Assembly: GCA_965203415.1 (NCBI GenBank)
Contig: CBDBCS010000006.1
Span: forward strand, 67,942 to 131,941
Reading direction: 5' to 3'
Length of the DNA: 64,000 bases
Source of the DNA: Alphaproteobacteria bacterium
Lineage (GTDB): Bacteria > Pseudomonadota > Alphaproteobacteria > CBDBCS01
The translations under genes were made by a program, and so were the position numbers. Below are positions 7,819 through 47,454 of this stretch, in pieces. Every line of letters starts with the position of its first letter. The first letter of the stretch is position 1. The notes under the pieces were generated by a model. The model was not told the origin of the DNA and did no database searches. It saw nothing but the letters and a program-made list of their open reading frames with translations.

Positions 7819-9018
7819 TTATTGGTCGAAACGGAGCTCTCGGAGCATCGCGATCGCCTGGCGGTGTCTCGCGAAGACCGCCACCAGCGGCGTCGAGTCC
7901 TGAGGATACCGCCCGAAGCCTTTCACCACGTCCGAGGGTTCACTATCGGTGGTCACGGGGTATTCGTGGTTCACCTCTGAAAAAAAGGCTTGGGCCTCTG
8001 GGGCGAGCAGAAAGCGGATCAAAGCCAGAGCCGCCTCGGGCTTAGAGCTCGCCTTGGTCATAGCGATGCCGGATATATTGACGTGGACGGGGTCTGGGAA
8101 GACGAGGCGCACGGCTTCGGCCCAGGCTCGTTGCTCGGCGTCCTCGAGCATGCGGCCGTAATAATAGGAATTCCCGATTGCCACATCGCACTCGCCCTGC
8201 CAGACGGCTTTGACCTGAGCTCGGTCATTGCCCTGAGGCCGCCGGGCGAGGTTCGCTTTCAGGCCTGCCATCCATTGGCGAGCTTTCTCGTCCCCCAGAT
8301 GCTCTATCATGAAGGCAAAAAGCGAGATATTATAGGGGTGCATGCCTTTCCGCATGCAGATTTTACCGCGCCAGGCGGGGTCCGCCAGGGCCTCATAGCT
8401 GGCAAGAGCCCCCTGAGGAACACGCTCCTTCGAGAGAAATAAAACGCGCATCCGCTTCGTCAGAGGAACCCAGTGCCGGTCCGGGTCTCGGAGAAAAGCG
8501 TCCAAACGCTCGAAAAGCGCGTCGGGGGGGATAGAGGCGACCAGATCCCTTTCGACCGCCAGCTCGAGATGGGCATGGCTGGAGGTCAAAATCAGGTCCG
8601 CAGGCGAGCGTTCGCCTTCGATGGCGATGCGCTCTAAGAGACCGGTCTCGCCATAGAGCAGTTTGACCTCCACCCCCGTTTGAGCCGTGAAACTATCCAA
8701 AACGGGCTCAATCAGATGGGGTTGCCGAAAGGAATAGAGGACAAGGCTCTGAGCCAGCCCCAGGCTGTTCCACCCCAGCCCTGCCCCCAGCACCACGGCG
8801 CTCAACAGACTCGGCCGACTCAGCAGGCTCTGCCTGAAGGCCGCCGCCGGCCGAGGTCTAAACTGAAACCCAGAGCCTCCCAAGCCGCGCCAGACCCCAG
8901 AGACCCAGGAGACCCAGACCCTCAGAGCCGAAAAACCCCGAGAGCCAGAGGCTCGAGAGCCGGAGGCTCGAGAGCCAGAGGCCTGACAGCCTGAAATATG
9001 GCGGCACAATCTTCTCAT
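7819..9018 (-). CDS. Fe(3+) ABC transporter periplasmic substrate-binding protein (FbpA/AfuA/FutA family); start uncertain
   Basis: LVLYSFRQPHLIEPVLDSFTAQTGVEVKLLYGETGLLERIAIEGERSPADLILTS... N-terminal region contains a 15-nt x3 repeat (ASGSRASGSRASGSR). No permease or ATPase gene adjacent. Confidence 0.8.
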   Translation of the reverse strand: MRRLCRHISGCQASGSRASGSRASGSRGFSALRVWVSWVSGVWRGLGGSGFQFRPRPAAAFRQSLLSRPSLLSAVVLGAGLGWNSLGLAQSLVLYSFRQPHLIEPVLDSFTAQTGVEVKLLYGETGLLERIAIEGERSPADLILTSSHAHLELAVERDLVASIPPDALFERLDAFLRDPDRHWVPLTKRMRVLFLSKERVPQGALASYEALADPAWRGKICMRKGMHPYNISLFAFMIEHLGDEKARQWMAGLKANLARRPQGNDRAQVKAVWQGECDVAIGNSYYYGRMLEDAEQRAWAEAVRLVFPDPVHVNISGIAMTKASSKPEAALALIRFLLAPEAQAFFSEVNHEYPVTTDSEPSDVVKGFGRYPQDSTPLVAVFARHRQAIAMLRELRFDQ

Positions 9019-9337
9019 TTTCTTTCCCGCCCGGCAATAAAGAACAGGCCCGGGATGCTATCAGGGTCCTACCAGGGTCCTACCAGAGAAAAAAACACGC
9101 GTCAAGCCTCTTTTTCAAAAACCCTACTCTGTTTCCCGAGGCTCTCCCTCTGCGCGCTTTTTTCCGCCGCATAGAGCCCATCGACATCGTTCAGAAACCA
9201 TGTCGGAAAGCCTTGACGTCCTTCTGTGCCGCGTGCTAGGGTCGCCCCGGGGCTGTACTTGAGGCTAGGCTCAGTGCGGACGCAGCTCAGCAGCAAATAG
9301 AACGGGAATAACGCGAGTTTAACGGGAGTAGAACTGG

Positions 9338-10565: not shown

Positions 10566-12083
10566 ATGGTCGGTACGTTACGTTTTCCCGAAGAGCCCTT
10601 TGACGTTGTCGTCGTCGGAGCCGGCAATGCCGCCTTATGTGCGGCTTTGGCGGCTCGAGAAGCGGGGGCGGCCTCGGTGGTGGTGCTGGAGCGTGCTCCT
10701 GAAACGCATAACGGTGGCAATAGTCGTTTCACCGCCGGGGCTTTCCGGTGCGTCTATGACGGCGTAGCGGATATTCGCGCGCTCTGTCCCGATTTGAGTG
10801 CAGGGCAACTCGCCACAACGGACTTCGGGGCCTATCGAGAGGCGGATTTTTTCCACGATATGGCCCGCATCACGCAGTTTCGGACGGACCCGGCCTTGAC
10901 CGAGACGCTGGTTACGCAGTCTCGCCCGACGCTGCGCTGGATGCGAGCCCTCGGGATTCGCTTCATGCCGATTTATGGTCGGCAGGCCTTCCGAACCGAG
11001 GACGGACGCTTCCAATTCTGGGGCGGCCTCACCATAGAGGCCTGGGGCGGCGGCCCCGGGCTGGTCGACCGAGAATTGGAACTCGCCCGGGACGCCGGCA
11101 TCCAGATCGTCTTTGAGGCCCGCGCCCGGGAGCTTCTCTTTGATGGCGAGGGCGTCTCGGGGGTACGGCTGCGGGACGGCACGCTGTGCCGGGGGCGGAC
11201 GGTTATTCTAGCCTGCGGCGGCTTCGAGGCCAATAGTGCTTGGCGCGCCCGGTATCTAGGCCCGGCTTGGGATCTCGCCAAGGTCCGGGGGACCTATTGT
11301 AATACGGGCGACGGTCTAGCGATGGCTCTGGCGATCGGAGCGGCCCCCTATGGCCATTGGTCTGGCTGTCACGCGGTGGGGTGGGACTATAACGCCCCAG
11401 AATTCGGCGACCTCGCCATCGGCGACGGCTTTCAGAAGCACTCGTATCCCTGGGGCATTATGGTCAATGCCGAGGGACGGCGCTTCGTCGATGAAGGGGC
11501 CGACTTCCGAAACTACACGTATGCGAAATACGGGCGTCAAATTCTGGCGCAACCCGGTCAATTCGCCTGGCAAATTTTTGACCAGCGCGTCCGCGGTCTT
11601 TTGCGCGACGAGTACCGCACGCCCAAGGTCTCGAAAGTCACGGCCGACAGCCTGCCAGAGCTCGCTTCTAAACTAGAGGGCGTTCAAGCCGAGCCCTTTT
11701 TACAGGAACTAGAGGCCTATAATCGGGCAGTCGACACGGGCCGTCCCTTCAAACCGACCGTTTTGGACGGCAGAGCGACCCACGGTCTGAAAGTCCCGAA
11801 GTCTAATTGGGCCAATCCTCTTGACACGCCGCCGTTCGAGGCTTATCACGTGGGGTGCGGCATCACCTTCACTTTTGGCGGTTTGCGCATCAACCCAGAG
11901 ACCAGCCAGGTGATAGACAGCGACCTAGAGCCTATCTCGGGCCTCTATGCTGCCGGAGAAATCGTCGGCGGTCTCTTTTATATGAATTATCCGGGCGGGA
12001 CTGGTTTGATGTCGGGGTCTGTTTTCGGCCGGCAGGCCGGCATTCACGCCGCGAAAGAAGCCTCCAGACAGGCGAGAAAATAG
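10566..12083 (+). CDS. FAD-dependent oxidoreductase, TcuA / fumarate-reductase-flavoprotein-like
   Basis: FDVVVVGAGNAALCAALAAREAGA...GGNSRFTAGAFR N-terminus and C-terminal GLYAAGEIVGG FAD motif. Confidence 0.75.
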   Translation: MVGTLRFPEEPFDVVVVGAGNAALCAALAAREAGAASVVVLERAPETHNGGNSRFTAGAFRCVYDGVADIRALCPDLSAGQLATTDFGAYREADFFHDMARITQFRTDPALTETLVTQSRPTLRWMRALGIRFMPIYGRQAFRTEDGRFQFWGGLTIEAWGGGPGLVDRELELARDAGIQIVFEARARELLFDGEGVSGVRLRDGTLCRGRTVILACGGFEANSAWRARYLGPAWDLAKVRGTYCNTGDGLAMALAIGAAPYGHWSGCHAVGWDYNAPEFGDLAIGDGFQKHSYPWGIMVNAEGRRFVDEGADFRNYTYAKYGRQILAQPGQFAWQIFDQRVRGLLRDEYRTPKVSKVTADSLPELASKLEGVQAEPFLQELEAYNRAVDTGRPFKPTVLDGRATHGLKVPKSNWANPLDTPPFEAYHVGCGITFTFGGLRINPETSQVIDSDLEPISGLYAAGEIVGGLFYMNYPGGTGLMSGSVFGRQAGIHAAKEASRQARK

Positions 12084-13210
12084 TCCAGTTCCGCCGCGTT
12101 ATTCCGCGGCCCCAGGCTCACGCGGAGCATCCGGCGCGCGGCCGTGGCGTCATAGCCGCACGCTCGTAGCGTCGGAGAACCCCGAAGAGCCCCCGAAGCA
12201 CAGGCCGTCCCGCTAGAGACGGCGATGCCTGCCAGATCTAGCCGCACCAGAAGAGCCTGCACATCCGGAACGGCTCGAGCGTCCTGGAACAGCAGGCACG
12301 TACTATTGCTCAGACGCGGGACATGCTGGCCGATGACTTGAATGCCGGGCGGTAATTTTTTTTCCAGCTCGTCGCGGAGCTCCTGCGTTCCACGCCAGTC
12401 ATACGGGTTTTGAGTCGCAAGCCCCAGACTATGGATTGCCAGAACGTTTTCGGTACCGGGTCTGTAAGCGTTCTCCTGCCCGCCGCCGTAAAGCAGAGGC
12501 TTTATATGGAAGGCGCCTGTCCGCCAGACCAGGCCTCCGACGCCCGGCAGAGCCCCGATTTTATGGCCCGAGAAACTCAGTAAATCCCACGGGATATCGG
12601 CGAGGGGCTCATCCGCTTTGCCGCCGAAAGCCTGCGTCGCATCACAATGCAGCCAGACCGGAAAAGAGGCTTTGTCCAGCGTGGCCCGAATCTCGGAAAG
12701 CGGCTGGAGAACGCCTGTCTCGCTATTGGCAAGCTGGATCGAGACAAGACACGGCGTCGAATCCGAGGCCAGAAGAACCGCAAGCTCTGAAAGAAGCACG
12801 CGGCCATCTGAATCCGTAGGCACAGAAACACAGGCGAGACCTCGCGCCGCGCCATAGACTCGGGCGGCCTCCAGAACAGAGGGATGCTCTGTCGCGGCAA
12901 CCAGAAAACGCAAGCCGGCAGCACAGGCGGCGGAACCGCCGCTCGAGCCCGACGTCTCGAAGCCTGAGAATAGCAAGTTGTGCGCCTCGGTTGCGCTGCT
13001 TGTCCAGACGAGCTCATCTGCCTGCAGGTCCTGTTTGAGCCACGCTCGCACCTGTTCGAGACGCGCGCGCTGTTTCTGGCCCGGCCGGTGCACCGAAGAG
13101 CCATTCCCTAAAAAAGAGTCCGCCTCCAGCGTATGGAGCAATGCGACGACCTCCTCCGTCAGCGGAGCCGTCGCGTTCCAGTCAAAATACACAAGCGGAG
13201 AACTCAACAT
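12044..13210 (-). CDS. cysteine desulfurase (class V aminotransferase, NifS/IscS-like)
   Basis: ORF 12044..13315. Start moved to ATG at 13210 (MLSSPLVYFDWNATAP...), the start conserved in all repeat copies. PLP-Lys motif SFSGHKIGALPGVGGL and catalytic Cys loop SSGTACASG. Confidence 0.88.
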   Translation of the reverse strand: MLSSPLVYFDWNATAPLTEEVVALLHTLEADSFLGNGSSVHRPGQKQRARLEQVRAWLKQDLQADELVWTSSATEAHNLLFSGFETSGSSGGSAACAAGLRFLVAATEHPSVLEAARVYGAARGLACVSVPTDSDGRVLLSELAVLLASDSTPCLVSIQLANSETGVLQPLSEIRATLDKASFPVWLHCDATQAFGGKADEPLADIPWDLLSFSGHKIGALPGVGGLVWRTGAFHIKPLLYGGGQENAYRPGTENVLAIHSLGLATQNPYDWRGTQELRDELEKKLPPGIQVIGQHVPRLSNSTCLLFQDARAVPDVQALLVRLDLAGIAVSSGTACASGALRGSPTLRACGYDATAARRMLRVSLGPRNNAAELDYFLACLEASFAA

Positions 13211-13286
13211 CCGTCTTCCATGAAAACCCCGGATAACAAACTGGGGCGCATGCCGTGAGGACCCGCGCCTCGGGCAGTTTCTCGAG

Positions 13287-13315
13287 CAGTTAGGCCGGAG
13301 GAAACTCGGCGTCAA
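13287..13315 (-). promoter_or_regulatory. putative desulfurase promoter TTGACG-17-TAACTG (minus strand)
   Basis: Reverse complement agaTTGACGccgagtttcctccggccTAACTGctc. Sits back-to-back with the plus-strand promoter at 13344. Confidence 0.35.
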
Positions 13316-13597
13316 TCTAGCACGAATTTTTATTTTCCGCCTCTTGACGAGACGCCTTTAACGCGATAGGCTCCTTTTTGCGTGCCGCCTCTCCCGTCTC
13401 CCGTCGGGGCAGGAGGAAGGCGTCGGGAAAACATACCGGGAAAACATACCGGGAGAACACACCGGGCTAGGGCCAAAATAGGAGCCAGAGTCACAAGACC
13501 GTGGTGAAAGCATCGTGAAGCTGAAGAGCCGTGGGCCGTACACGCGTCTCGCTCCGGGGACGCGGTGCACCCGTTGAGACCGATCAGCCTGTGCACT

Positions 13598-13858
13598 CGA
13601 CGTCTCGAAGCCTGAAAAGAGCAAGTTGTGAGCCTCGGTTGCGCTGCTTGTCCAGACGAGCTCATCTGCCTGCAGGTCCTGTTTGAGCCACGCTCGCACC
13701 TGTTCGAGACGCGCGCGCTGTTTCTGGCCTGGCCGGTGCACCGAAGAGCCATTCCCTAAAAAAGAGTCCGCCTCCAGCGTATGGAGAAACGCGATGACCT
13801 CCTCCGTCAGCGGAGCCGTCGCATTCCAGTCAAAATACACAAGCGGAGGACTCAACAT
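13598..13858 (-). pseudogene. truncated 5' copy of the cysteine desulfurase gene (87 codons)
   Basis: Part of ORF 13358..13972: MLSPPLVYFDWNATAPLTEEVIAFLHTLEADSFLGNGSSVHRPGQKQRARLEQVRAWLKQDLQADELVWTSSATEAHNLLFSGFETS, then unrelated sequence. Confidence 0.85.
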
Positions 13859-14838
13859 CCGTCTTCCGTGAGAACCCGGAAAAACGCTGGCCTGGTTGAA
13901 AAAGCGCACATAAAGTCTTAAAGCTTGAGGGCTCGGGCGAACGGATGCGCCCTCACACGGAGAGACCCCCATGCATGCCGTGCTCGGGCGCGCCTTCCGT
14001 GAGGATTCCCACCCGGGTCGTCCCCGGGGCCTCTCGGGCCTCCCGGGCGGTCCGGAAAGAGCCCCGGCAGTCCGGCAGCCACGAGTCTATAGCTGGCATA
14101 CCCGTGTTCTCGATGGGTTCTTTTTTCGTGATGTAACCGCGACTGGGGGTCGGCGTACCGTACCAGATTGGGAGGCGAGACGGACAACTTCGTGCCGCCT
14201 CTTTCCCTACACCTGCTGTGCCGGCAGGGGGAGTATGGGGCTATAAAAGGCACGCTTGTAGAGCCTCCATGGGCTTTCCGGGTCATCATAGCGGTTCAAG
14301 GACACAAAAACAAGCGGTCGACCCAAGCTTCGAAAGCTGTACCCAAGCTTTTAAAGCCTTGCGAAAGTCGTGTTTGTACATATATAGATCGTCGCTCTTG
14401 GTAAACAGCGAAAAAAGACGGCACCCGTGGCGAAGCATGGCCTCATCAGCGGCCTCTTTTCGAGGGCCGCCACCACAGCCTCGGCCGTCGGCTGCCAGCG
14501 GGTCCAAAACTCGGCAACATTGGCGATCGACTGGAGCCTGGCAAGGGCTCCGAGCCTCTTGTTTTCTGCAGTCTGGGCAAAATATTGGAACACAGGGTAG
14601 GTTTCTTGCGCAAGCGTCGGCGGCAGCCGTTCTTCAGCACGCATCTTCTAGCCTCGTCGCCCAGCCCTTTTTCACGCGCCTTGGACGTTGTGAGAGAAAG
14701 CCTCGGCGTTCATGTTGAGCATGCTAGCACAAAACAAGACCGTGGTGAAAGCACCGTGAAGATGAAGAGCCGTGGGCCTTACACGCGTCTCGCTCCGGGG
14801 ACGCGGTGCACCCGTTGAGACCGGTCAGCCTGTGCACT

Positions 14839-15099
14839 CGACGTCTCGAAGCCTGAAAATAGTAAGTTGTGAGCCTCGGTTGCGCTGCTTGTCCAGACGA
14901 GCTCATCTGCCTGCAGGTCCTGTTTGAGCCACACTCGCACCTCTTCGAGACGCGCGCGCTGTTTCTGGCCCGGCCTGTGCACCGAAGAGCCATTCTCTAA
15001 AAAAGAGTCCGCCTCCAGTGTACGGAGCAACGCGACGACCTCCTCCGTCAGAGGAGCCGTCGCATTCCAGTCAAAATAAACAAGCGGAGCACTCAACAT
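14839..15099 (-). pseudogene. truncated 5' copy of the cysteine desulfurase gene (87 codons)
   Basis: ORF 14779..15099 starts MLSAPLVYFDWNATAPLTEEVVALLRTLEADSFLENGSS... and diverges after ...FSGFETS. Confidence 0.85.
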
Positions 15100-15460
15100 C
15101 CGTCTTCCGTGAAAACCCGGAGAATAAACTGGGGGCGCATGCCGCGAGGACCCGAGCCTCGGGCGGTTCTTCGGGAAGTTAGGCCGGAGGCGGCTCGGCG
15201 TCAGTTTAGCATGAATTTTTATTTTCTGCCTCTTGACGAGACACCTTTAACGCGATAGGCTCCCTTTTGCGTGCCGCCTCTCCCGTCTCCCGTCGGGGCA
15301 GGAGGAAGGCGTCGGGAGAACACACCGGGCTAGGGCCAAAATAGGAGCCAGAGTCACAAGACCGTGGTGAAAACATCGTGAAGCTCAAGAGCCGTGGGCC
15401 GTACACGCGTCTCGCTCCGGGAACGCGGTGCACCCGTTGAGACCGGTCAGCCTGTGCACT

Positions 15461-15721
15461 CGACGTCTCGAAGCATGAAAATAGTAAGTTGTGAGCCTCG
15501 GTTGCGCTGCTTGTCCAGACGAGCTCATCTGCCTGCAGGTCCTGTTTGAGCCACGCTCGCACCTGTTCGAGACGCGCGCGCTGTTTCTGGCCCGGCCTGT
15601 GCACCGAAGAGCCATTCTCTAAAAAAGAGTCCGCCTCCAGTGTACGGAGCAACGCGACGACCTCCTCCGTCAGAGGAGCCGTCGCATTCCAGTCAAAATA
15701 AACAAGCGGAGCACTCAACAT
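15461..15721 (-). pseudogene. truncated 5' copy of the cysteine desulfurase gene (87 codons)
   Basis: ORF 15206..15721, same N-terminal 87 residues, then read-through into repeat sequence. Confidence 0.85.
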
Positions 15722-15854
15722 CCATCTTCCATGAGAACCCCGGATAACAAACTGGGGCGCATGCCGCGAGGACCCGAGCCTCGGGCGGTTCTTCGGGAAG
15801 TTAGGCCGGAGGCGGCTCGGCGTCAGTTTAGCATGAATTTTTATTTTCTGCCTC

Positions 15855-15883
15855 TTGACAAGACGCTTCTAACACGATAGGCT
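15855..15883 (+). promoter_or_regulatory. putative acyl-CoA ligase promoter TTGACA-17-TAGGCT (gene-proximal copy)
   Basis: Copies with TTGACG occur at 13344-13372 and 15233-15261 in the upstream repeat units. Confidence 0.4.
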
Positions 15884-16029
15884 CCCTTTTGCGTGCCGCC
15901 TCTCCCGTCGGGGCGGGAGGCAGGCACCGGAAACACACCGGGGAAACACACTGGGGAAACACACCGGAAACACACACCGGGCTAGGGCCAAAACAGGAGC
16001 CAGCGTAACAAGACCGTGATAGAAGCACC

Positions 16030-17910
16030 GTGAAGCTCAAGAGCCGTGGGCCGTACACGCGTCTCGCTGTCGAGACGGCGGAGTCTCTGCCGGGCCTTTT
16101 TTTCACCCAGGCGACGCTTTTAGCGGATAGGCCTCTGTTTTACGCCTGGAAAGGGCCGGAGGCTTCGCGCGAGGCGGCCGCCTCGACCGCCTGGGTCTCG
16201 ACGAGCTGGCGGGACGCGGCGCGCAAAGTCCTGCATCTGGCGGCCCTGTTCCAGAGTCGCGGGCTTCAACCAGGTGCCCGAGTCTGTCTTTTAGCCGAAA
16301 ATTGCCCCGAATGGGGGATTGCTCATTTAGCCATTATGACGGCGGGCGGTTTATCGGTACCGCTCTATACGACGAACACGCCCGAGTCCCATCGGCATAT
16401 TATATCGGACAGCGGGGCTCGAGTTGCGGTTATCTCGGCGAGTCTGCTTGTTCCGTCTCTTCTTGAAACACTTGCGGGGCATCTGGATTGGATCCTGGTT
16501 CTGGGACCAGAGCAGGCCTCCGCCGCTAGCCGGCAAAAGAGCACCTCTCTGCCGCTTATTTTCCGCAATCTGGCGGAGGAAACCGACCCGCCCGAACCGC
16601 CGGCGGAACAGCGGCGCCATTTTATGAAAACCCTGTCGGATGTCAATAGAGACGATACGGCTGTTCTGATTTATACCTCTGGCACGTCGGGGGAGCCTCG
16701 GGGCGTCATGCTCAGCCACGAGAATATCTTATCCAATATGCGGTCGGCTTTGCCGATTTTACGGAGCCTCCGAGGCTTTGACATCGGCAGCGAGCGTTTT
16801 TTGTCTTTTTTGCCTCTCAGTCACGCCTATGAGCACATGGCGGGTTTTTTTCTACCGCTCGCCATCGGCGCGCGGGTCTGGTACTGTCCTGCCCTAGAGT
16901 ACCTGATAGAGCTCATTCCTCAGGTTCGTCCGACGATTATGACGGCCGTCCCGCGTCTTTATGAGATTTTATACGACCGCATCCACCGGAATCTGGCGAA
17001 GAGCTCGCCGCGTCAACGCCGTCTGTTCGAGGCAACCCGGGCGGTGGGGCATAAACGCCTTCATGGACAGAGCCTCTCTTTGGGAGACTTCTTGTTCGAC
17101 AAGAGCCTAGGCTCTGTCGTTCGGCGCAAGGTGGCACGGCGGTTTGGCGGAGAATTGCGAGGCTTTATCAGCGGTGGGGCGCCTCTTCACCCTGTTATCG
17201 GCGATTTTTTCCTGAGCATGGGGGTTTTGATACTCCAGGGCTATGGCCTGACCGAGACGTCGCCGGTTGTCTCGGTCAATCTTCCTCAGAACCCGTTGAG
17301 TGCGACCGTCGGGCCGCCTCTGGCGGGCACGGAGGTGAAAATCGCCTCGGACGGCGAAATTCTGGTCCGAGGCCCCTGCGTCATGAAAGGCTATTGGGGA
17401 CAGAGCGACGCGACCCAACGCGTCCTCTTGCCGGAGGGTTGGCTGGCGACGGGCGATTGCGGCGTTTTGACACCGGAGGGGCATCTCCAAATCATTGACC
17501 GCAAGAAGGATATTTTTGTCACGTCGGGAGGCGATACGATCGCGCCTCAAAAAATGGAGGGGCTGTTGAATCTGCAGCCCGAAATCGCCCAGGCTCTGGT
17601 TGTAGGCGATGGACGGGCGCATCTTGGGGCTCTTATTTATGGAGCCGACGATGACAATGACACCGGCGACACTGGCGACACCGGCAATGACACCGGTGCC
17701 AGCCCATCCGTCAAGGAAAAACGGGCGCGCATCGCCCGAGCCCTCGAGCGCGTCAATGCAGAGCTCGCCCCTGCAGAGCGTCTCCGGCGGTTCCACGTGC
17801 TGGAAGAGGCCTTTTCTATCGAGAACGGTCTTTTGACACCGTCTCTTAAACCCCGGCGCGCTCGTATTGTCGCGCGCTATCGCGCCGAGATCGAGGCTCT
17901 ATACACCTAA
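16030..17910 (+). CDS. long-chain fatty-acid--CoA ligase (AMP-dependent synthetase/ligase)
   Basis: AMP-binding motif LIYTSGTSGEPRGVMLSH, plus GYGLTETS and TGDCGVLTPEGHLQIIDRKKD. GTG start. In-frame DTGDTGDTGNDTG repeat insertion near the C-terminus. Confidence 0.88.
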   Translation: MKLKSRGPYTRLAVETAESLPGLFFTQATLLADRPLFYAWKGPEASREAAASTAWVSTSWRDAARKVLHLAALFQSRGLQPGARVCLLAENCPEWGIAHLAIMTAGGLSVPLYTTNTPESHRHIISDSGARVAVISASLLVPSLLETLAGHLDWILVLGPEQASAASRQKSTSLPLIFRNLAEETDPPEPPAEQRRHFMKTLSDVNRDDTAVLIYTSGTSGEPRGVMLSHENILSNMRSALPILRSLRGFDIGSERFLSFLPLSHAYEHMAGFFLPLAIGARVWYCPALEYLIELIPQVRPTIMTAVPRLYEILYDRIHRNLAKSSPRQRRLFEATRAVGHKRLHGQSLSLGDFLFDKSLGSVVRRKVARRFGGELRGFISGGAPLHPVIGDFFLSMGVLILQGYGLTETSPVVSVNLPQNPLSATVGPPLAGTEVKIASDGEILVRGPCVMKGYWGQSDATQRVLLPEGWLATGDCGVLTPEGHLQIIDRKKDIFVTSGGDTIAPQKMEGLLNLQPEIAQALVVGDGRAHLGALIYGADDDNDTGDTGDTGNDTGASPSVKEKRARIARALERVNAELAPAERLRRFHVLEEAFSIENGLLTPSLKPRRARIVARYRAEIEALYT

Positions 17911-17984
17911 CGGGAAACCTAACGGGCTCGAGAGACGGCGAATTGCGTGCCTCGCCCGGTGTTTTTTGTGTTTTTTCTGTATGT

Positions 17985-18085
17985 GTATAAAGGTATGTGT
18001 ATAAGTGTATGTTTATACAAGCGTATGTGTATAAGTGTGTGTTTATAAATGTATGTTTATAGAAGTGTATGTGTGTAAGTGTATC
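17985..18085. repeat. degenerate AT-rich GTATGTGTATAAR-type short tandem repeats
   Basis: gtatgtgtataaaggtatgtgtataagtgtatgtttatacaagcgtatgtgtataagtgtgtgtttataaatgtatgtttatagaagtgtatgtgtgtaagtgtat. Confidence 0.8.
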
Positions 18086-18088
18086 TAG

Positions 18089-18379
18089 ATGGAGAACGCC
18101 ATGACCTCAAAAAACGAGACGCCCAACAAAAAAACCCCCAAGACACCCAAGGAGAAACAAGACGCCTTAGAGGCCGAGGCTCGGAACACGCTCGCCCGCA
18201 TGGAACGCGAGAGCGACATGTTCGGCGGCCGGAACACTGGTTTTTTTCTTTTCAGAACACGCGAGGGTGTCTCGAAGCGCATGCGTCTCGCCATTGGGAT
18301 TGCCAGAGTTCTGGTGTTCGGAGGGGCTCTTCTTTATCTTATATCCCTTTTGGCGAGCGGCAGCGGCGGGGCGAGCTAG
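18089..18379 (+). CDS. hypothetical small protein with basic N-terminus and one C-terminal TM helix
   Basis: ORF 18089..18379 (...MRLAIGIARVLVFGGALLYLISLLASGSGGAS). No family recognised. Coding status uncertain. Confidence 0.3.
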   Translation: MENAMTSKNETPNKKTPKTPKEKQDALEAEARNTLARMERESDMFGGRNTGFFLFRTREGVSKRMRLAIGIARVLVFGGALLYLISLLASGSGGAS

Positions 18380-18680
18380 CCCAGAGCCGCAGCCGGAACC
18401 GGACTTTCCGACCGAACCCCGCCGGTCGGTGGGGCTGGACTGCCGGTGCCGGATCACCGGTGCCGGATCTCGAACCTTCGGGCGGGGCCTTTCCGGTTGG
18501 CGGGCGGGAGCAGCGGCGGGGCGAACTAGACCCGGGGGCCTTTCGACCGGGCCCGTCGGGCTGAACCGCCGACCGAACCGACCGGACCCCCCTGGCAGGT
18601 GCCGGATCACCGGTGCCGGACTGCCGGGGCCGGATCTGTAATCTCCGGGTTTACCCTTCGGGCCAGGCCTTTTTCCGGAT
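18355..18680. repeat. ~150-bp x2 diverged tandem duplication starting with the last codons + stop of ORF 18089..18379
   Basis: cagcggcggggcgagctag at 18361 and cagcggcggggcgaactag at 18511. Both units contain gccggtgccggatcaccggtgccgga. Confidence 0.7.
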
Positions 18681-18760
18681 TCGGGGTGCCGTGCCCCCCT
18701 GGTGGAGACTTTTTCTGAGAGCCTTTTGAGGATTGCGGAATCCAAAAAAGGACAAGAGTC

Positions 18761-19597
18761 TCACTTAAATTTTGCGACCATATCCTTGATGCCTGGAATT
18801 GTTTCCAGCTGATAGGCGTAACTGGGATGAAAATTCATCCCCAGAGCCTGCCTAGAGGCTCCTCCGAGAATCGTAAAATAATACATCTCGAAGCCTGGAG
18901 CGGCGACACAGGGGTGATAGCCTGACTCTATCACGAAAGAGGACCCACTTTTGACGTGGAAGACTTGGCCGAATTCCTCTTTTTCGCGCTGCAAAAATTG
19001 AGCTCCAAAGCCATTCTCGGGTCGGAAGCGGAAGTGGTAGGCTTCATCGTGGTGTGTCTCGCCTGGCGGGGCGTCTGTGTCGTGTTTATGTGGCGGAAAG
19101 CCCGACCATCCCCCTGCCCCCACCGTAAAGAGTTCACTCACGAGCAATCTTCCGACTTTGTCGCGTTGTTTTTGTCCGATGATGTGCTTAATTTTGCGGT
19201 GTGTTTTGGTCTCGTCCGAGCCATACTGGACGTGGTCGAGGTCTTTCCGCCTCACGTGGAAGGGTGTCAGCGTTTTTTCATAGCGCGCTCCTGCGATGAA
19301 GGTCTCGCAGGCCTGTCGAGCCGTCAATCGGGCCTCGGTGCCTGTGGGCACGTAGACGCCCTCGGGGTCGTCCTCCCAGAGGCCCGCCCGGCGCGAGAGC
19401 TCGGCGGTGAACCCGCCTTCGAGGCAGATCTCCAGAGCCCCGACAGACGGCACGACGACGCTCTCATAGGCGGGCAGGCGATAGGTAAACACTTCGCCGG
19501 GGGCCAGTTTCACGAGATTGAAATAGACTCGAGGCACCGAAGCGTGGTCCTCGGCGATGATGGGCATGTTGCGATTGTCATAGGGGGGAATGTGCAT
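18761..19597 (-). CDS. iolB: 5-deoxy-glucuronate isomerase
   Basis: KduI/IolB-like: LLVSELFTVGAGGWSGFPPHKHDTD...ETHHDEAYHFRF...GYHPCVAAPGFEMYYF. ATG at 19597 has a GGAGA RBS 8 nt upstream and is preferred over GTG at 19624. Confidence 0.85.
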   Translation of the reverse strand: MHIPPYDNRNMPIIAEDHASVPRVYFNLVKLAPGEVFTYRLPAYESVVVPSVGALEICLEGGFTAELSRRAGLWEDDPEGVYVPTGTEARLTARQACETFIAGARYEKTLTPFHVRRKDLDHVQYGSDETKTHRKIKHIIGQKQRDKVGRLLVSELFTVGAGGWSGFPPHKHDTDAPPGETHHDEAYHFRFRPENGFGAQFLQREKEEFGQVFHVKSGSSFVIESGYHPCVAAPGFEMYYFTILGGASRQALGMNFHPSYAYQLETIPGIKDMVAKFK

Positions 19598-22269: not shown

Positions 22270-22534
22270 AATTGGGGAGGGAGCTCGTGTTTTTCGCCTG
22301 ATTTTCTCAAAAACGTACCGTTAAGGCGAGGTATTTTTAGGATTTTCTCAAGTTACGCATGGAGATTTTTTGAAGAAAAGTGAAAAATCGGTAGGCAAAA
22401 AAGAATGAACTAGAAAGACGCACCGGGAGGAAAGATATCAGAACCCAACGGTTTTGCCCTGGGGCCCGGGTGGTCTGCCCTGGGTTTGTCCCGGGTAGCC
22501 GCCATTCAGGCGTTTCAAGAGGCCCATCTCCCGG

Positions 22535-22720
22535 GTGGTCTGCCCGGGTGGTCTGCCGCGGGGGTCGCCTGCCACGGGAGTCGCCTGCCACGGGGCTCGC
22601 CTGCCACGAGAGTCGCCTGCCGCGGGGGTCGCCTGCCACGAGAGTCGCCTGCCACGAGAGTCGCCTGCCACGAGAGTCGCCTACCACGGGGATTGCCTGC
22701 CACGGGGGTCGCCTGCCACG
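22535..22720. repeat. 16-nt tandem repeat (GTCGCCTGCCACGNGA)n, about 10 units
   Basis: cacgagagtcgcctgc reiterated. The ORF-track peptides show the expected 16-aa periodicity on both strands. Confidence 0.9.
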
Positions 22721-24625
22721 CCTCCGACGAGAACAGAAAAAACACCTCGGCCCTATCGGCCCACTCCTTAATCTGTACCGAGGTTGTGTCCTGGGTCCGT
22801 CCGGACCCGCCACTGCCGAGAACAGAAAAAAACAGCTTGGCCCCATCTATCGCCCATGCCTTAGTCTGTACCGAGCTTGTGTCCCGGGTCTGCCCTGAGT
22901 CCGTCCGGACCCGCCACTGCCGAGAACAGAAAAAAACAGCTTGGCCCCATCTATCGGCCATGCCTTAGTCTGCACCGAGGTTGTGTCCCGGGTCCGTCCT
23001 GACCCCCCTCCGACGGGAACAGAAAAAACAGCTTGGCCCTATCTATCGGCCCTTCCTGAATCTATACCGGGTCTGTGTCCTGGGTTTGGCCTGACCCGCC
23101 TCCGCCGCCGAGAGCAGGAAAAACAGCTTGGCCCCATCTATCGGCCATGCCTTAGTCTGCACCGAGGTTGTGTCCCGGGTCCGTCCTGACCCCCCTCCGA
23201 CGAGAACAGGAAAAACAGCTTGGCCCCATCTATCGGCCATGCCTTAGTCTGTCCCGGGGTTGTGTCCCGGGTCTGTCCTGAGTCCGTCCGGACCACCTCC
23301 GACGAGAACAGAAAAAACAGCTTGGCCCCATCTATCGGCCATGCCTTAATTGGCCCCATCTATCGGCCATGCCTTAATCTGTACCGAGGTTGTGTCCCGG
23401 GTCTGTCCTGAGTCCGTCCTGCCCCGCCTCCGACGAGAACAGGAAAAAACAGCTTGGCCCCATCTATCGGCCATGCCTTAATTGGCCCCATCTATCGGCC
23501 ATGCCTTAATCTGTACCGAGGTTGTGTCCCGGGTCTGTCCTGGGTCCGTCCTGCCCCACCTCCGACGAGAACAGAAAAAACCCCTCGGCCCCATCTATCA
23601 GCCATGCCTTAGTCTGTACCGAGGTTATGTGCCGGGTCTGTCCTGAGTCCGTCCTGCCCCGCCTCCGACGAGAACAGGAAAAACGCCTCGGCCCTATCGG
23701 CCATGCCTTAGTCTGTACCGAGGTTGTGTTCCGGGTCTGTCCTGAGTCCGTCCGGACCACCTCCGACGAGAACAGAAAAAACCCCTCGGCCCCATCTATC
23801 GGCCATGCCTTAGTCTGTCCCGGGGTTGTGTCCCGGGTCTGCCCTGAGTCCGTCCTGCCCCGCCTCCGACGAGAACAGAAAAAACGCCTCGGCCTTATCT
23901 ATCGGCCATGCCTTAGTCTGTACCGAGGTTGTGTCCCGGGTCTGTCCTGGGTCCGTCCTGCCCCACCTCCGACGAGAACAGAAAAAAACAGCTTGGCCCC
24001 ATCTATCAGCCATGCCTTAATCTGTACCGAGGTTGTGTCCCGGGTCCGTCCTGCCCCGCCGCCGACGAGAACAGAAAACAGCACCTCGGCCCCATCTATC
24101 GGCCATGCCTTAATCTGTCCTGGGTTTGTGTACCGGGTCTGTCTTATCCTGCCTCCTCCGACGAGAACAGAAACAGCACCTCGGCCCCATCTATCGGCCA
24201 TGCCTTAGTCTGTACCGAGGTTGTGTCCCGGGTCTGTCCTGGGTCCGTCCGGACCCGCCACTGCCGAGAACAGGAAAAACGCCTCGGCCCCATCTATCGG
24301 CCATGCCTTAATCTGTACCGAGGTTGTGTCCCGGGTCTGTCCTGAGTCCGTCCGGACCCGCCACTGCCGAGAACAGGAAAAACGCCTCGGCCCCATCTAT
24401 CGGCCATGCCTTAATCTGTACCGAGGTTGTGTCCCGGATCCGTCCTGAGTCCGTCCTGCCCCGCCTCCGACGAGAACAGAAACAGCACCTCGGCCCCATC
24501 TATCGGCCATGCCTTAGTCTGTCCCGGGGTTGTGTCCCGGGTCTGCCCTGAGTCCGTCCTGCCCCGCCTCCGACGAGAACAGGAAAAACGCCTCGGCCTT
24601 ATCTATCGGCGGCCTCTATCGGCGG
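22721..24625. repeat. array of about 19-20 units of a ~103-bp tandem repeat (93-133 bp); each unit is hairpin + U-tract on the minus strand
   Basis: Motif ggccccatctatcggccatgcc recurs at about 22839, 22941, 23034, 23129, 23221, 23323, 23456, 23588, 23690, 23789, 23890, 23995, 24088, 24183, 24287, 24390, 24493. ORF-track starts at 24221/24324/24427/24530 give an exact 103-bp period. Confidence 0.93.
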
Positions 24626-27844: not shown

Positions 27845-28900
27845 CATGCCATAAAAATGCCACGAACAGGAGGCGTCCTCTGAGGAACTCTGTGTCATCG
27901 GGCTTCTCTGGATGGATGGAGCGTCTCTTTTTTGGACGCGTTTGGACGCGTTTAGACACGAATAGACACGAATAGACACAAACGGGCGGGCTCGATTCTC
28001 GACATTCTTTTTTGGAACCCTTTGATAGGCCGTCTCGGGGCACGCAAGAGAAAACCATCTCAAATCGGCGTAGACCAGCGTAAGCCCCGGCATAATTCCG
28101 GCATAATCCTGGCATAATCCCGGGATTAACCTCGGGAAACGGCACAAGAGTCTCATCCTGGAAACCCTGGAAACCCCCGACGATAACGCCACAAAAACGC
28201 CAGAGAAGCGGCGGAACAACGCACCAATAACCATAGCACGAACATACCACAAGCTCAGGAGGCGTCCTCTGAGGAACTCTGTGTCATCGGGCTTCTCTGG
28301 ATAGATGGAGCGTCTCTTTTTTGGACGCGTTTAGACATACATAGACACGAATAGACACAAACGGGCGGGCTCGATTCTCGACATTCTTTTTTGGAACCCT
28401 TTGATAGGCCGTCTCGGGGCACGCAAGAGAAAACATCTCAAATCGGCGTAAGCCAGCGTAGGCCCGGCATAATTCCGGCATCATCCCGGCATAATCCCGG
28501 GATTAATCTCGAGAAACGGCACAAGAGTCTCATCCTGGAAACCCTGGAAACCCCCGACGATAACGCCATAAAAACGCCAGAGAAGCGGCGGGACAACGCA
28601 CCAATAACCATAGCACGAACATACCACAAGCACAGGAGGCGTCCTCTGAGGAACTCTGTGTCATCGGGCTTCTCTGGATGGAGGAAGCGTCTCTTTTTTG
28701 GACGCGTTAGACATACATAGACACGAATAGACACAAACGGGCGGGCTCGATTCTCGACATTCTTTTTTGGAACTCTTTGTTCGGCCGTCTCGGGGCACGC
28801 AAGAGAAAACCATCTCAAGTCGGCGTAGGCCAGCGTAGGCCCCGCATAATTCCGGCATCATCCCGGCATTAATCTCGGGAAACGGTACAAGAGTCTCATC
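27845..28900. repeat. ~380-bp non-coding tandem repeat, about 2.8 copies
   Basis: caggaggcgtcctctgaggaactctgtgtcatcgggcttctctggat at 27867, 28256 and 28633 (periods 389 and 377). Internal micro-repeats ggcataatNcc and agacacgaat. Confidence 0.9.
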
Positions 28901-33574: not shown

Positions 33575-33935
33575 GCAATCGTCATGAATATCGCGACGAT
33601 GGAGGCATTGGGAACCTCATGAGTCGGAATAGAAATAACCGGGGAGGTTTATTCTTCTTTTTTACGCATCTGTTCGCGAGGTTTCGAGCGGCGCGTCTTT
33701 TGCTTTTTTCCAAAAGCACCTCTGTCAAACCCAGCGACCCTTATGGCAAGCCGGGATATCATCAAGAACATCTCGACTACGGAGGCACTGGTGGGCCCAT
33801 GAGCCGGAATAAAAAGAACGGGGGAAGTTTGTTCTCCTTTTTTGCGAATTTGTTCGCAAGGTTGCAAGGAGGGAGCTTTATGTTTCTTTTCAAAAGCTCC
33901 GCTGTCAAGCCCGGTGAGCTTTATGGCAAACCAGG
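33575..33935. repeat. 180-bp x2 tandem duplication spanning RBS + start + first ~45 codons of tauC
   Basis: atcgtcatgaatatcgcgacgatGGAGGcattgggaacctcATGagtcgg versus atatcatcaagaacatctcgactacGGAGGcactggtgggcccATGagccgg. ATGs at 33619 and 33799. Confidence 0.85.
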
Positions 33936-38753: not shown

Positions 38754-40160
38754 TCAAAAAAGGACGCCAGGGTTGAGAATGCCGTCCGGATCAAAAAGAG
38801 CCTTCAAACGCCGCATACAGGCCAAAGTGACAGGCGTATGAAAACGACCCAGAGCGGGCACCAAAAAGCGTCCGATGCCGTGCTCGGCACTGATGGTTCC
38901 GCCGTGAGCGACTGCCATCTGCTGGACGAGCGCCTGGATCTCGGACGCTTGGTGCTCCCAGGCTTTCGGAGACAGCTGCGCCCCGTTCGGACAGGCGACC
39001 GAATAATGGAGACTGCCGTCGCCTAAATGGCCGAAAGGGAGGCTCAAACAATCCGGGAAAAGCCTCGAGAGCTCAGATTCCAGCGTTTCGACGAAGCCAG
39101 GCAGGCGCGAGAGAGGCACGGCGATATCATTCTTGACGAGCTTCCCAAAATGGCCGGCGGCCTCGGGCGTAAGCGTGCGCAGACGCCAAAAAGTTTCTTT
39201 TTGGCGTTCGCTCTGAGCAAACCAGGCGTTCAGCAGTTTGTCGTCGTGGCGTCCGAGCTCATCCTGCCACAATTCGGCCAGAGGCAGTGTCGGATGATTC
39301 GTCGTCAGCTCTGCCAGCAGCCACCAGGCGGGAGCGGAGTCCAGCTGTAGATTCAAGCCTCCGGCTTGGACGGCGGTGCGAGCCAGAGGCCCTGATAGGA
39401 CCTCAAAAGCCGAGAGAAAGTCCTCGAAAAGAGCCCGCCAGCTGCAAAAGAGCTCCAAAGCATGCGCGAGCGAAGCAACGCCCAACAGACAGAGAACCGA
39501 TTGCTGAGGACGGCGATAGAGCTTCAAATGAGCGGCGGTCAAAATCGCCAGCGTGCCCTCGCTTCCGACCAAGAGGGGTGTCAAGGCATACCCGGCGTTA
39601 TTTTTGGGCAGCACGACGCGCTCTTTATAGATTTCGCCGGTGCCTAAGACGGCCTCCACGCCCCAGACGAGGGCCCGAGCCATGCCGTATCGAACGACAT
39701 GGATGCCCCCTGCATTGGTCGACAAAAGCCCGCCGAGCGTCGCCTGATCCTGACTTCCGAACTCCAGGGGGAAGTGGAGATGGTGCGTCTCGGCGAGGGC
39801 CCGGGCTTCGGCGAGGGTCATGCCTGCCTCTACGGTCATGGTCTGGCTCTGGGCGTCGAGGGCTCGGAGGCGTTTCATGCGCTCCAGGGTCAGTAAAATC
39901 GGCTCCGGCCCTTCTGCAGAGCCCCTGCAAGGCGTCGAGCCCCCCACGAGGCCGGTGTTGCCGCCCTGTATCTGCAGAGGCGTACGTGTTTCCCGACAAT
40001 AGCGGCAAATAGTTGCGACGTCCTCGGTCGTCCCCGGGAGCAGATGGAACCGGCACGCGCCCTCGAGGCGTTTGCGCCAGTCGGTCAAACGAGGCTGCGT
40101 TTGGTCCGGCGAGGCGAGCTCGGTATCCGAAAGACGGGCGCGCAACGCTTCCAGAGTCAC
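38754..40160 (-). CDS. FAD-linked oxidase (GlcD / D-2-hydroxyacid dehydrogenase family)
   Basis: 468 aa. FAD-binding PCMH region LLPGTTEDVATICRYCRETRTPLQIQGGNTGLVGGSTP, C-terminal GGTISAEHGIG...FDPDGILNPGV. GTG start. Confidence 0.85.
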   Translation of the reverse strand: MTLEALRARLSDTELASPDQTQPRLTDWRKRLEGACRFHLLPGTTEDVATICRYCRETRTPLQIQGGNTGLVGGSTPCRGSAEGPEPILLTLERMKRLRALDAQSQTMTVEAGMTLAEARALAETHHLHFPLEFGSQDQATLGGLLSTNAGGIHVVRYGMARALVWGVEAVLGTGEIYKERVVLPKNNAGYALTPLLVGSEGTLAILTAAHLKLYRRPQQSVLCLLGVASLAHALELFCSWRALFEDFLSAFEVLSGPLARTAVQAGGLNLQLDSAPAWWLLAELTTNHPTLPLAELWQDELGRHDDKLLNAWFAQSERQKETFWRLRTLTPEAAGHFGKLVKNDIAVPLSRLPGFVETLESELSRLFPDCLSLPFGHLGDGSLHYSVACPNGAQLSPKAWEHQASEIQALVQQMAVAHGGTISAEHGIGRFLVPALGRFHTPVTLACMRRLKALFDPDGILNPGVLF

Positions 40161-40800
40161 GATGACACAATCAACAGCAGGGGCACAGCAGAGTCACAGC
40201 AAGACCACCGCCTGATGGTGACGGGCAGACTCGAGGGCCATTCTACAGAGGCAATGCGCCAGTCGGTCAAACGAGGCTGCGTTTGGTCCGGCGAGGCAAG
40301 CTCGGTGTCTGAAAGACGGGCGCGCAACGCTTCCAGAGTCACGATGACACACTCAACAGCAGGGGCACAGCAGAGTCACAGCAAGACCACCGCCTGATGG
40401 TGACGGGCAGACTCGAGGGCCATTCTACAGAGGCAATGCGCCAGTCGGTCAAACGAGGCTGCGTTTGGTCCGGCGAGGCAAGCTCGGTGTCTGAAAGACG
40501 GGCGCGCAACGCTTCCAGAGTCACGATGACACACTCAACAGCAGGGGCACAGCAGAGTCACAGCAAGATCGCCACCTGATAGTGACGGGCGGACTCGGGG
40601 GCCATTCTACAGAGGCAATGCGCCAGTCGGTCAAACGAGGCTGCATTTGGTCCGGCGAGGCGAGCTCGATGTCCGAAAGACGGGCGCGCAACGCTTCCAG
40701 AGTCACGATGACACAATCAACAGCAGGGGCACAGCAGAGTCACAGCAAGACCGCCACCTGATAGTGACGGGCGGACTCGGGGGCCATTCTACAGAGGCAA
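40073..40800. repeat. 182-bp x4 tandem array = first 28 codons of the FAD-oxidase gene + ~95 nt upstream
   Basis: ORFs 40157..40342, 40339..40524 and 40521..40706 all begin MTLEALRARLSD(T/I)ELASPDQ(T/M)QPRLTDWR. Exact 182-nt register. Confidence 0.92.
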
Positions 40801-40928
40801 AAGGAGGCGGAAAGGCGGAAAAAACGATGCACATGGTTCTCGACCGGACGGGACCGGGACTCTTCAAAAAAAACAGACCTGCCTCCCGGAATGATTCCGG
40901 AAATGACCCCGGGAACACTCTCCTGCAC

Positions 40929-47198: not shown

Positions 47199-47454
47199 TC
47201 CTCAAGAAAGCACGTAAAAACGCACACAGACAGCCCACATGCAGGTCTCCGGGCAGACAAGTCTCGTCGGTCGGCCGACAGCACGGAAAAGCACAGAAAG
47301 CAAACAGAAAGCAAAAACAACGCCAAAACGACATTTCCGTAGCGTATCTGTTGAGAACATGGACCTTGACGATGCCCCTGTAAAAAGCTACCGTGCGAGG
47401 GCGGGGGGATACTTTTGCAGGCTACTCCCAAAAAGAGAGGACAATACGAAAACC

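Follow-up and report, generated by a model that had tools for sequence, protein, structure and literature searches.

A tandemly repeated divergent control region with translatable gene stubs between a cysteine desulfurase family gene and an acyl-CoA ligase gene of an alphaproteobacterium

The region between two divergently transcribed genes, encoding a cysteine desulfurase family protein and an AMP-binding acyl-CoA ligase, was found to be multiplied on contig CBDBCS010000006.1 of an alphaproteobacterial genome assembly. We analyzed a stretch of 64,000 nucleotides (nt) around this locus, hereafter the window, within which arrays, promoters and repeat load were counted. The array is unusual, as a complete divergent control region is repeated in it together with two translatable gene stubs and a filler at the junction, and the copies are strongly diverged. 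The explanation that we favour, with modest confidence, is a tandem segmental duplication of the divergent control region that arose as a by-product of genome-wide array-making, the additional promoters being incidental. This explanation draws on the anatomy of the units, on a second strain carrying the same junction in a different copy number, and on the abundance of other tandem arrays in the window. It is weighed below against readings in which the array is selected for its promoters, its RNAs or its stub proteins, in which it was assembled from imported alleles, or in which it is an artefact.

Structure of the array

The repeat search returned four direct repeats in head-to-tail orientation (12950-13249, 13598-13897, 14839-15138 and 15461-15760), which are spaced by 648, 1241 and 622 nt. 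They are 92-95% identical over 300 nt, and 92-97% identical in the desulfurase and junction parts. A four-way alignment gave unit boundaries that agree across all four copies, with the whole array spanning 12950-16068. On the plus strand, each of the units A to D is ordered as S (the first 87 codons of the desulfurase gene, 261 nt), I (an intergenic core ranging from 278 to 308 nt), L13 (the first 13 codons of the ligase gene) and a 45-nt filler, F. Desulfurase starts are located at 13210 (the real gene), 13858, 15099 and 15721, and GTG starts of the ligase at 13515, 14756, 15378 and 16030 (the real gene).

Three stub open reading frames (ORFs) are present at 13358..13972, 14779..15099 and 15206..15721. 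The stub proteins comprise 106, 166 and 171 aa, and pass from the desulfurase residues ...FETS into filler-encoded SAQADRSQRVHRVPGARRV; their C-terminal tails, of 19, 79 and 84 residues, are unrelated in length. Each of the four stubs known from the two strains compared here retains its ATG, a GGAAGA-type ribosome-binding site and the reading frame. The unit content, boundaries, intact starts and stub ORFs described in an earlier note on this DNA were thereby reproduced almost to the base. That note had also described a four-fold promoter cassette. Four units are indeed present, but unit B is exceptional in that its intergenic core is swapped for about 830 nt of orphan DNA (segment X), so that the array holds three promoter cassettes and not four. 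The features are listed in Table 1.

Table 1. Positions of the array components, the predicted promoters and the other tandem arrays in the window.
Feature	Position	Strand	Remarks
Real cysteine desulfurase family gene, 388 aa	12044..13210	-	codons 1-87 (12950-13210) are S of unit A
Intergenic core I, unit A, 304 nt	13211..13514		divergent promoter-like pair and ligase 5' leader
Predicted promoter TTGACG-N17-TAACTG facing desulfurase, unit A only	13287..13315	-	read from sequence
AT-rich tract ATTTTTATTTTCC between the two -35 elements	13326..13338		UP-element-like
Predicted promoter TTGACG-N17-TAGGCT facing ligase, unit A	13344..13372	+	copies at 15233-15261 (C) and 15855-15883 (D)
Ligase stub L13, unit A (VKLKSRGPYTRLA)	13515..13553	+	ORF extends 7 codons into filler
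Filler copy 1, 45 nt	13554..13598		copies 2 and 3 at 14795-14839 and 15417-15461
Desulfurase stub S, unit B, 87 codons	13598..13858	-	ORF to 13358, 166 aa from ATG 13858
Segment X, ~830 nt of orphan DNA	13890..14722 (approx.)		occupies the place of I in unit B
Ligase stub L13 of unit B (VKMKSRGPYTRLA) and filler copy 2	14756..14839	+	
Desulfurase stub S, unit C	14839..15099	-	ORF 14779..15099, 106 aa
Unit C: I (278 nt), L13 (15378-15416), filler copy 3 (15417-15461)	15100..15461		
Desulfurase stub S, unit D	15461..15721	-	ORF 15206..15721, 171 aa
Intergenic core I, unit D	15722..16029		adjoins the real ligase
Real AMP-binding acyl-CoA ligase, 626 aa	16030..17910	+	codons 1-13 are L13 of unit D
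Perfect hairpin CGTCTCG-CTGT-CGAGACG	16060..16077	+	exactly at the right-hand duplication boundary
Array, 16-nt x10.5, then ~103-nt x ~18	22530-24610		gap between convergent oxidoreductase (ends 22269) and prfA (ends 24662)
Array, 377-nt x2.7	27866-28880		divergent hisS/aptA-like gap
Array, 180-nt x2	33578-33929		across the start of a TauC-like permease ORF
Array, 182-nt x4	40073-40800		start of glcD-like FAD oxidase gene (38754..40160, -)
Array, 327-nt x ~4.7	40878-42441		directly after the 182-nt array
Array, 479-nt x2	47423-48360		duplicates a whole small VOC/glyoxalase-like gene, 85-87% identical
Array, 302-nt x2	58245-58710		

A second strain and the reality of the duplication

The only other relative among about 15 billion proteins is a desulfurase that is 98% identical and comes from strain L081; the next relative of the desulfurase is 43% identical. 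The L081 locus lies on an independent contig of 10.6 kb in ENA, whose flanks show 1.45% mismatches to the window. It carries the same L13-filler-S junction, X and one stub, in two units only, and its order is the real desulfurase joined directly to X, followed by L13, F, the stub, I and the real ligase. The real desulfurase of this strain adjoins X, and the nearest promoter cassette is 1.2 kb away. The orthologous locus, which the earlier note had proposed to inspect in relatives, therefore matches the window in its junction, filler, stub and X but departs from it in having two units instead of four. The copy number is known from these two strains only, and the count of four rests on one assembly, with L081 supporting the junction types.

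The duplication is nevertheless real, because a stub-filler-stub junction is impossible to obtain from a single-copy locus. An assembly artefact, with a four-unit array falsely built by joining strain variants of what is really a simpler locus, would be in keeping with the metagenome-type origin of both sequences, with a four-unit count that has no independent confirmation, and with the resemblance of the S copies to functional alleles. It is contradicted by the occurrence of the stub-filler-stub junction in two independent assemblies. Moreover, each of the units is set apart by private variants and by its structure, so that reads longer than 3 kb would place the units unambiguously, and the source contig, for which the proteins of the window including the stub ORFs are recorded, is 1.79 Mb long (1,787,677 bp). 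We regard such an artefact as very improbable.

Units of the two strains are related in a mosaic manner. In L081, the first S resembles that of unit A at the outer end and that of unit B inside, and the I resembles that of unit C in its left part and that of unit D in its right part. This pattern fits two homologous deletions (A with B within S, and C with D within I) from a longer, window-like array. The S sites 36, 69 and 228 and several blocks of I are shared among the units in mutually incompatible patterns, which implies that the units recombine with one another. In addition, the type B sequence (P4, I22, F24), which is only a stub in the window, forms the N-terminal end of the real enzyme in L081. 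The comparison shows a later history of expansion, contraction and segment exchange by homologous recombination between units. It likewise shows that one unit had its I replaced by X, and that the two strains differ in which stub is attached to the gene body.

Other tandem arrays in the window

Tandem arrays account for about 17% of this 64-kb sample, and at least eight of them have a period of at least 90 nt. In the array at the start of the glcD-like gene for a flavin adenine dinucleotide (FAD) oxidase, the first 29 codons together with 94 nt of upstream DNA are repeated four times, giving three 61-aa stub ORFs with a junction without filler. This array is of the same "stub plus upstream" design as the desulfurase/ligase array. 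The two strains are also separated by 10 indel events in the 7-kb left flank, where short tandem duplications make up two or more of the larger insertions. Because of the array share of about 17%, the glcD-like array and these strain indels, we interpret the desulfurase/ligase array as one instance of a genome-wide process. The locus has the properties of a variable-number tandem duplication, namely direct repeats, a copy-number difference between strains (with one comparison strain) and an excess of arrays around it.

The window has a GC content of 58% and contains the housekeeping genes gyrA, alaS, hisS, prfA, tldD and xerC. No protein in the collection searched exceeds 54% identity to AlaS, and the named matches belong to Stellaceae, Caenispirillum and Fodinicurvata. 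Judged from these sequences, the organism is a deep-branching alphaproteobacterium with a small genome. An ORF for a XerC-like tyrosine recombinase of 489 aa (45122-46591, minus strand) matches the XerC model from residue 204 only and has a long N-terminal extension.

Filler, segment X and unit boundaries

The 45-nt filler has exactly three occurrences (13554, 14795 and 15417) and none elsewhere in the window, where zero are expected by chance. Compared with either parent gene, with X or with the flanks, it is no more similar than shuffled sequence would be, and the earlier description of the filler as foreign to both parental genes is borne out. A candidate resemblance to ligase codons 14-18 was dropped, as it was no better than that of shuffled sequence. 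Filler copies 2 and 3 contain two perfect 8-nt palindromes (GGTGCACC and GACCGGTC) plus GTGCAC, and the second palindrome is broken in copy 1 (GACCGATC); at least two 8-nt palindromes are contained in only 1.7% of 45-nt segments. The 7-mer CGTCTCG is found 2-3 nt inside both unit ends (12953 and 13545). The copies of the filler diverge by 0-4%, and filler and L13 together by 0-7%.

The palindrome GGTGCACC has seven occurrences in the 64 kb (13087, 13564, 13735, 14805, 15427, 41383 and 41705). All are within tandem arrays, five in the desulfurase/ligase array and two in the 327-nt array.

Segment X ends about 30 nt from the stub ATG on one side and about 30 nt from the stub GTG on the other, and differs by 1.13% between the window and L081. 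No match to X was found in Pfam, NCBIfam or PHROGs, its 97-aa ORF retrieved only itself among 1.84 billion representative proteins, and there is no second copy within the window. Inverted repeat pairs were absent from 11000-18500. A mobile element, miniature inverted-repeat transposable element (MITE) or integron cassette was rejected, on the grounds that neither inverted repeats nor a transposase were found and that X and the filler are confined to a single locus and without family matches. Rfam models gave nothing with E<0.28 in 11000-19000, and in the whole window the tRNA alone reached the gathering score. Folding of the junction, the leader and the boundary yielded z-scores from -1.9 to +0.5.

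A proposed origin

All junctions, that is, the three internal joints of the window and the one in L081, are copies of one junction, which argues for a single founding event. We propose that this event linked ligase codon 13 to desulfurase codon 87 through the palindrome-rich filler. The mechanism was probably replication template switching at the boundary hairpin and the CGTCTCG microhomology, with the filler either captured or synthesised. A hairpin and microhomology at the boundary are features of slippage or template switching, and the 45-nt filler does not fit simple slippage. The array holds three rightward promoters, probably genuine, and three weaker leftward ones, and these would give rise to extra transcripts, convergent transcription and translatable stub ORFs as by-products.

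The ligase leader also contains a 13-nt tandem repeat (CGGGAAAACATAC / GGAAACACACCGG), at 13424-13466 in unit A and 15929-15981 in unit D, with 3.3 copies in unit A, about one in C, 4.1 in D and about two in L081. This repeat lies downstream of the predicted -10 element, outside the promoter spacer and outside any reading frame, and so does not form a simple-sequence contingency locus.

Promoters and transcription

A generic sigma-70 scan returned no site in the array region, and the organism-specific pattern TTGAC-N17-19-TAnnnT was used in its place. This pattern has nine matches in the window against 1.75 expected, a number reached by none of 100 shuffles. The cassettes of units A, C and D account for three of these matches. 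Another match, at 1534-1563 on the minus strand, has a -10 hexamer TAGGGT that ends 22 nt before tRNA-Ser, and the match at 9213-9242 on the plus strand is located 96 nt upstream of a CMAS gene. Further matches were found on the plus strand at 47366-47394, 59141-59169 and 61918-61946, and the -10 element is often TAGGGT or TAGGCT. The pattern is a candidate for the house promoter form of the organism.

Because the pattern is enriched and also present upstream of tRNA-Ser and the CMAS gene, the rightward promoter of the cassette is credible. The plus-strand sites TTGAC(G/A)-N17-TAGGCT noted earlier at 13344, 15233 and 15855 were confirmed, with the same architecture enriched across the window. 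The accompanying statement that ordinary units keep both back-to-back sites holds for the plus-strand site, in units A, C and D; the minus-strand site TTGACG-N17-TAACTG, however, is present in unit A alone. Units C and D have the weaker form CTGACG...TAACTT, and neither leftward form fits the enriched pattern. The run AATTTTTATTTT (13325-13336) is invariant in the four I copies, and so is the plus-strand -10 TAGGCT, whereas the other three hexamers each vary at one position. Taken together, variable positions are not significantly rarer in the promoter elements (5 of 37) than in the remainder of I (59 of 232; P=0.15).

Terminator-like sites are absent between units C/D and the ligase and from the minus strand, and X possesses two terminator-like hairpins on the plus strand. 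Because no such site intervenes, promoters C and D could both feed the ligase. Unit A would probably be insulated from the ligase by the hairpins of X, and leftward transcripts would reach the desulfurase without meeting a terminator-like site. Rightward transcripts would include the antisense of the desulfurase stub. Each internal joint forms a convergent promoter pair about 350 nt apart, so that interference is as likely as addition.

These observations bear on a selected promoter-dosage array, in which each extra unit adds a rightward promoter for the ligase and a leftward one for the desulfurase, and gain or loss of units tunes both genes. The enriched architecture, shared with tRNA-Ser, accords with this idea, as do the invariance of TAGGCT and AATTTTTATTTT, the free path from units C/D to the ligase and along the minus strand, the difference in unit number between strains and the retention of the array over 10-15% synonymous divergence. 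Against it, the promoter elements lack significant extra conservation, convergent neighbours should interfere and not simply add, and the hairpins of X would insulate unit A. The distance of 1.2 kb between the L081 desulfurase and its nearest cassette is also unfavourable, and other arrays of the window are located in promoterless gaps, such as the convergent gap at 22.5-24.6 kb. We therefore consider promoter dosage unlikely.

A maintained regulatory device can also be conceived, in which serial bidirectional promoters set the dosage of the flanking genes through unit number and the promoter of each gene transcribes the antisense of the other gene's 5' stub. The resulting trans-acting antisense RNAs would be 95-97% complementary to the real desulfurase and ligase mRNAs at their start regions, and would couple both genes negatively. 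We hold such a device to be quite unlikely. If it did exist, constraint on the stubs at the level of protein or frame would be a sign of selection, as would the long time over which the array has persisted, and like arrays at other gene starts, as at the glcD-like gene, would represent a genome-wide mode of regulation in a repeat-rich lineage.

Variation and constraint among the stubs

Six copies of S were compared, four from the window and two from L081. They have 21 variable sites, 12 synonymous and nine nonsynonymous, the latter at nine amino-acid positions. The divergence of I, 10-17%, is about the synonymous rate of S. The S types differ by 10-15% at synonymous sites, compared with about 3% between the strains. 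Changes on internal, hence old, branches comprise nine synonymous and five nonsynonymous ones. Private changes of the stubs are four nonsynonymous to one synonymous, and those of the two real genes zero to two; the youngest pair, C and D, has no synonymous and three nonsynonymous differences. Old differences look constrained and recent ones neutral.

Several points in this record, and one in the second strain, weigh against an array that is only an incidental by-product. Given the substitution spectrum of I, a synonymous share of 30% is expected, and 12 of 21 were seen (P=0.008). Pairwise synonymous differences per site (pS) range from 0.05 to 0.15 and nonsynonymous ones (pN) from 0 to 0.035, with pN/pS of 0.14-0.31 even when stub is compared with stub. 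No indel occurs in the six copies of S, whereas I shows one or two gap events per pair, and both variable filler sites are synonymous in the stub reading frame. Unselected 600-nt direct repeats in recombination-proficient bacteria are usually short-lived; the synonymous divergence of 10-15%, set against about 3% between the strains, implies that this array persisted far longer than such repeats usually do. On this evidence the stub copies do not look fully neutral over their whole history, a point in favour of the earlier note. The synonymous bias may come from stubs that were re-derived from, or exchanged with, the expressed gene, in which case functional peptides would not be needed. A turnover model of this kind, however, predicts pN/pS of at least (1+ω)/2, about 0.58, and its fit to the data is P~0.1, which makes repeated re-derivation from the expressed gene appear strained. 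Lastly, the two-unit state of L081 could partly be an assembly collapse.

Two further sources of the bias were considered and rejected. Selection on the stubs through a load of stub-to-gene conversion would require frequent conversion, which would homogenise the copies, yet they have 10-15% synonymous divergence. Ectopic conversion from a paralogue in the same genome is not supported, as no second desulfurase above 43% identity was found in the protein collection.

Selection might act on the stub proteins themselves, in each of which an 87-residue desulfurase N-fragment is followed by 19 or more filler-encoded residues; they could, for instance, be dominant modulators of the pyridoxal phosphate (PLP) enzyme. 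The intact start, ribosome-binding site and frame in four stubs of two strains point in this direction, together with the low pN/pS that includes stub-stub pairs, the absence of indels from S and the synonymous state of both filler variants. Opposing evidence comes from the private changes and the C-D pair, from tails of such different lengths as 19, 79 and 84 residues, from the lack of a cassette of its own in unit B, and from the stub search, which returned only these stubs and no comparable fragment family. Residues 1-87, which we take to be only part of the class-V large domain (IscS/NifS fold), presumably contain neither the PLP lysine (in SFSGHK) nor the catalytic cysteine, and this counts against selected stub proteins as well. 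Such a function is in our judgement distinctly improbable.

It can also be supposed that the array skeleton is young, given a filler divergence of only 0-4%, and that the S-I segments were replaced by homologous recombination with functional alleles of distant lineages, X being the intergenic region of a donor. Old differences would then be synonymous-biased as in functional genes (9:5 on internal branches) and recent ones neutral-looking, as was seen. The lower divergence of filler plus L13 (0-7%) than of I or of the synonymous sites of S is compatible with imported alleles, and so is the location of X, which is bounded almost exactly by two conserved translation-start regions. The 9 kb of flanks compared between the window and L081, by contrast, hold no patch of comparable divergence, with a maximum of 12 mismatches per 250 nt. 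No donor lineage is present in the databases; the next desulfurase is 43% identical, and a 27-mer invariant in the six S copies had 0 matches in JGI metagenomes. The recombination end points on the ligase side would moreover have to lie in a very short homology of about 65 nt. We rate imported alleles as improbable.

Neutral duplication debris, which the earlier note had named as the outcome that would overturn its proposal, is at least as likely as any functional reading. A selected function of the array, be it titration of a regulator, boosting or insulation of expression, or dominant N-terminal fragments, is not favoured, because the tails differ, the private changes stand at 4:1, the copy number is 4 versus 2, the L081 desulfurase adjoins X and there are many other arrays.

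Comparison with known systems

Reportedly, according to Collins et al., some arrays of Ehrlichia ruminantium likewise duplicate gene ends. Tandem repeats make up 6.3% of the E. ruminantium genome by Tandem Repeats Finder (TRF), which was called the highest value for bacteria in 2012, as compared with 0.38% in E. coli, and hairpin-promoted slipped-strand mispairing has been put forward as the cause (PMC3287509). The copy number of the E. ruminantium arrays differs between strains by expansion and contraction (PMC10710844; Frutos et al. 2006 as summarised there and in PMC3287509). The present case is similar in its small alphaproteobacterial genome, its exceptional array load, the periods of about 100-500 nt and the mostly intergenic location. 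It differs in that the host is GC-rich (58%) and Rhodospirillales-like whereas E. ruminantium belongs to the AT-rich Rickettsiales, and in its unit of 622-648 nt, which includes the whole divergent promoter region and both gene starts. The copies here are old, with up to 17% core divergence, and have a filler at the junction, in contrast to the near-identical copies of E. ruminantium, and the repeat load of about 17%, in a 64-kb sample only, exceeds 6.3%.

In Wolbachia, the variable-number tandem repeats VNTR-105 and VNTR-141 have hairpin-bearing intergenic periods and a copy number that varies between close strains, and concerted evolution has been proposed for them (PMC3287509). Intergenic tandem arrays with hairpins and strain-variable copy number are common to both cases. 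The Wolbachia periods of 105-141 nt, however, are 98-99% identical and without gene fragments, while the unit described here contains two translatable stubs and promoter-like sites, in diverged mosaic copies.

Two further systems are related in mechanism. Adaptive amplification in enteric bacteria produces head-to-tail repeats between short homologies, which then change by RecA-dependent unequal recombination; whole genes are amplified, the copies are near-identical, and they are lost fast without selection. Head-to-tail repeats, short homologies, expansion and collapse, and possible dosage effects are shared with our array. Its unit of 87 plus 13 codons, in contrast, holds no complete gene, which separates it from adaptive gene amplification, and it has persisted over 10-15% synonymous divergence. 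In Anaplasma msp2/p44 and Neisseria pilS, silent truncated donor cassettes replace the matching part of an expressed surface-antigen gene, and the B-type stub, whose sequence begins the real enzyme of the other strain, resembles such a donor. The stubs are unlike silent cassettes in keeping their ATG, ribosome-binding site and promoter cassette; the target is a cytoplasmic PLP enzyme of the class-V aminotransferase type, and the few differences, at nine positions, are conservative and do not form a hypervariable region. We place the array among the actively variable tandem repeats, a class known from E. ruminantium and Wolbachia (PMC10710844, PMC3287509).

Flanking genes

The desulfurase matches PF00266 over positions 1-371 of 371 (E=1.9e-37), and is a class-V aminotransferase or NifS-like protein. 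Its best NCBIfam models are NifS, DndA and IscS, all with scores under the curated cut-offs, and its start at ATG 13210 is backed by homologues of about 385 aa. The ligase matches PF00501 (E=1.4e-77) and also PF23562, and is FadD11-like in NCBIfam, under the curated cut-off. In a scan of GTDB genomes, the desulfurase was divergent from a ligase in none of 80 distant loci; with the ligase as query, the best match was 42% identical, and no orthologous locus was found among the matches. Exact look-ups of the ligase, the desulfurase and one stub ORF among encoded genes gave no match.

Additional short repeats and strain differences were observed around the two genes. The desulfurase gene and a convergent ORF for an FAD-binding oxidoreductase (10566..12083) overlap tail to tail by 40 nt (12044-12083). 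The C-terminal part of the ligase gene has an in-frame 9-nt coding repeat at about 17640-17690 (GACACCGGC, encoding DTGDTG...), which in L081 exceeds its length in the window by at least 38 nt, the L081 contig ending within the repeat. The L081 ligase also has two single-base homopolymer insertions (at window positions 16243 and 17310) that would break the frame, and the gene caller gave a 387-aa piece only; the gene is a pseudogene or else the consensus is in error. An AT-rich 14-nt repeat (TGTATGTGTATAAG x7.4) at 17978-18084 starts about 70 nt past the ligase stop in GC-rich surroundings. On the desulfurase side, a gene for an iron-type ATP-binding cassette (ABC) substrate-binding protein (7819..9018, minus strand) contains a 15-nt coding repeat at 8939-8982 (SGSRA x3), and its 3' end has three 1-nt insertions in short base runs in L081, which jointly keep the frame.

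Significance

As an isolated locus, the array is of little significance beyond being a natural example of how one duplication followed by unequal recombination can multiply promoters and yield translatable fragments. Different stubs are attached to the gene body in the two strains, and arrays of this kind can therefore change the N-terminus of an enzyme and its upstream region in one recombination step. An old array whose stubs do not look fully neutral would be tractable for telling apart selection on fragments and recombination with the expressed gene. Two points deserve following up, namely the synonymous bias of the stubs and the genome's repeat load. The GC-rich, deep-branching and unstudied lineage would offer a second, independent system for asking why small genomes make and keep arrays.

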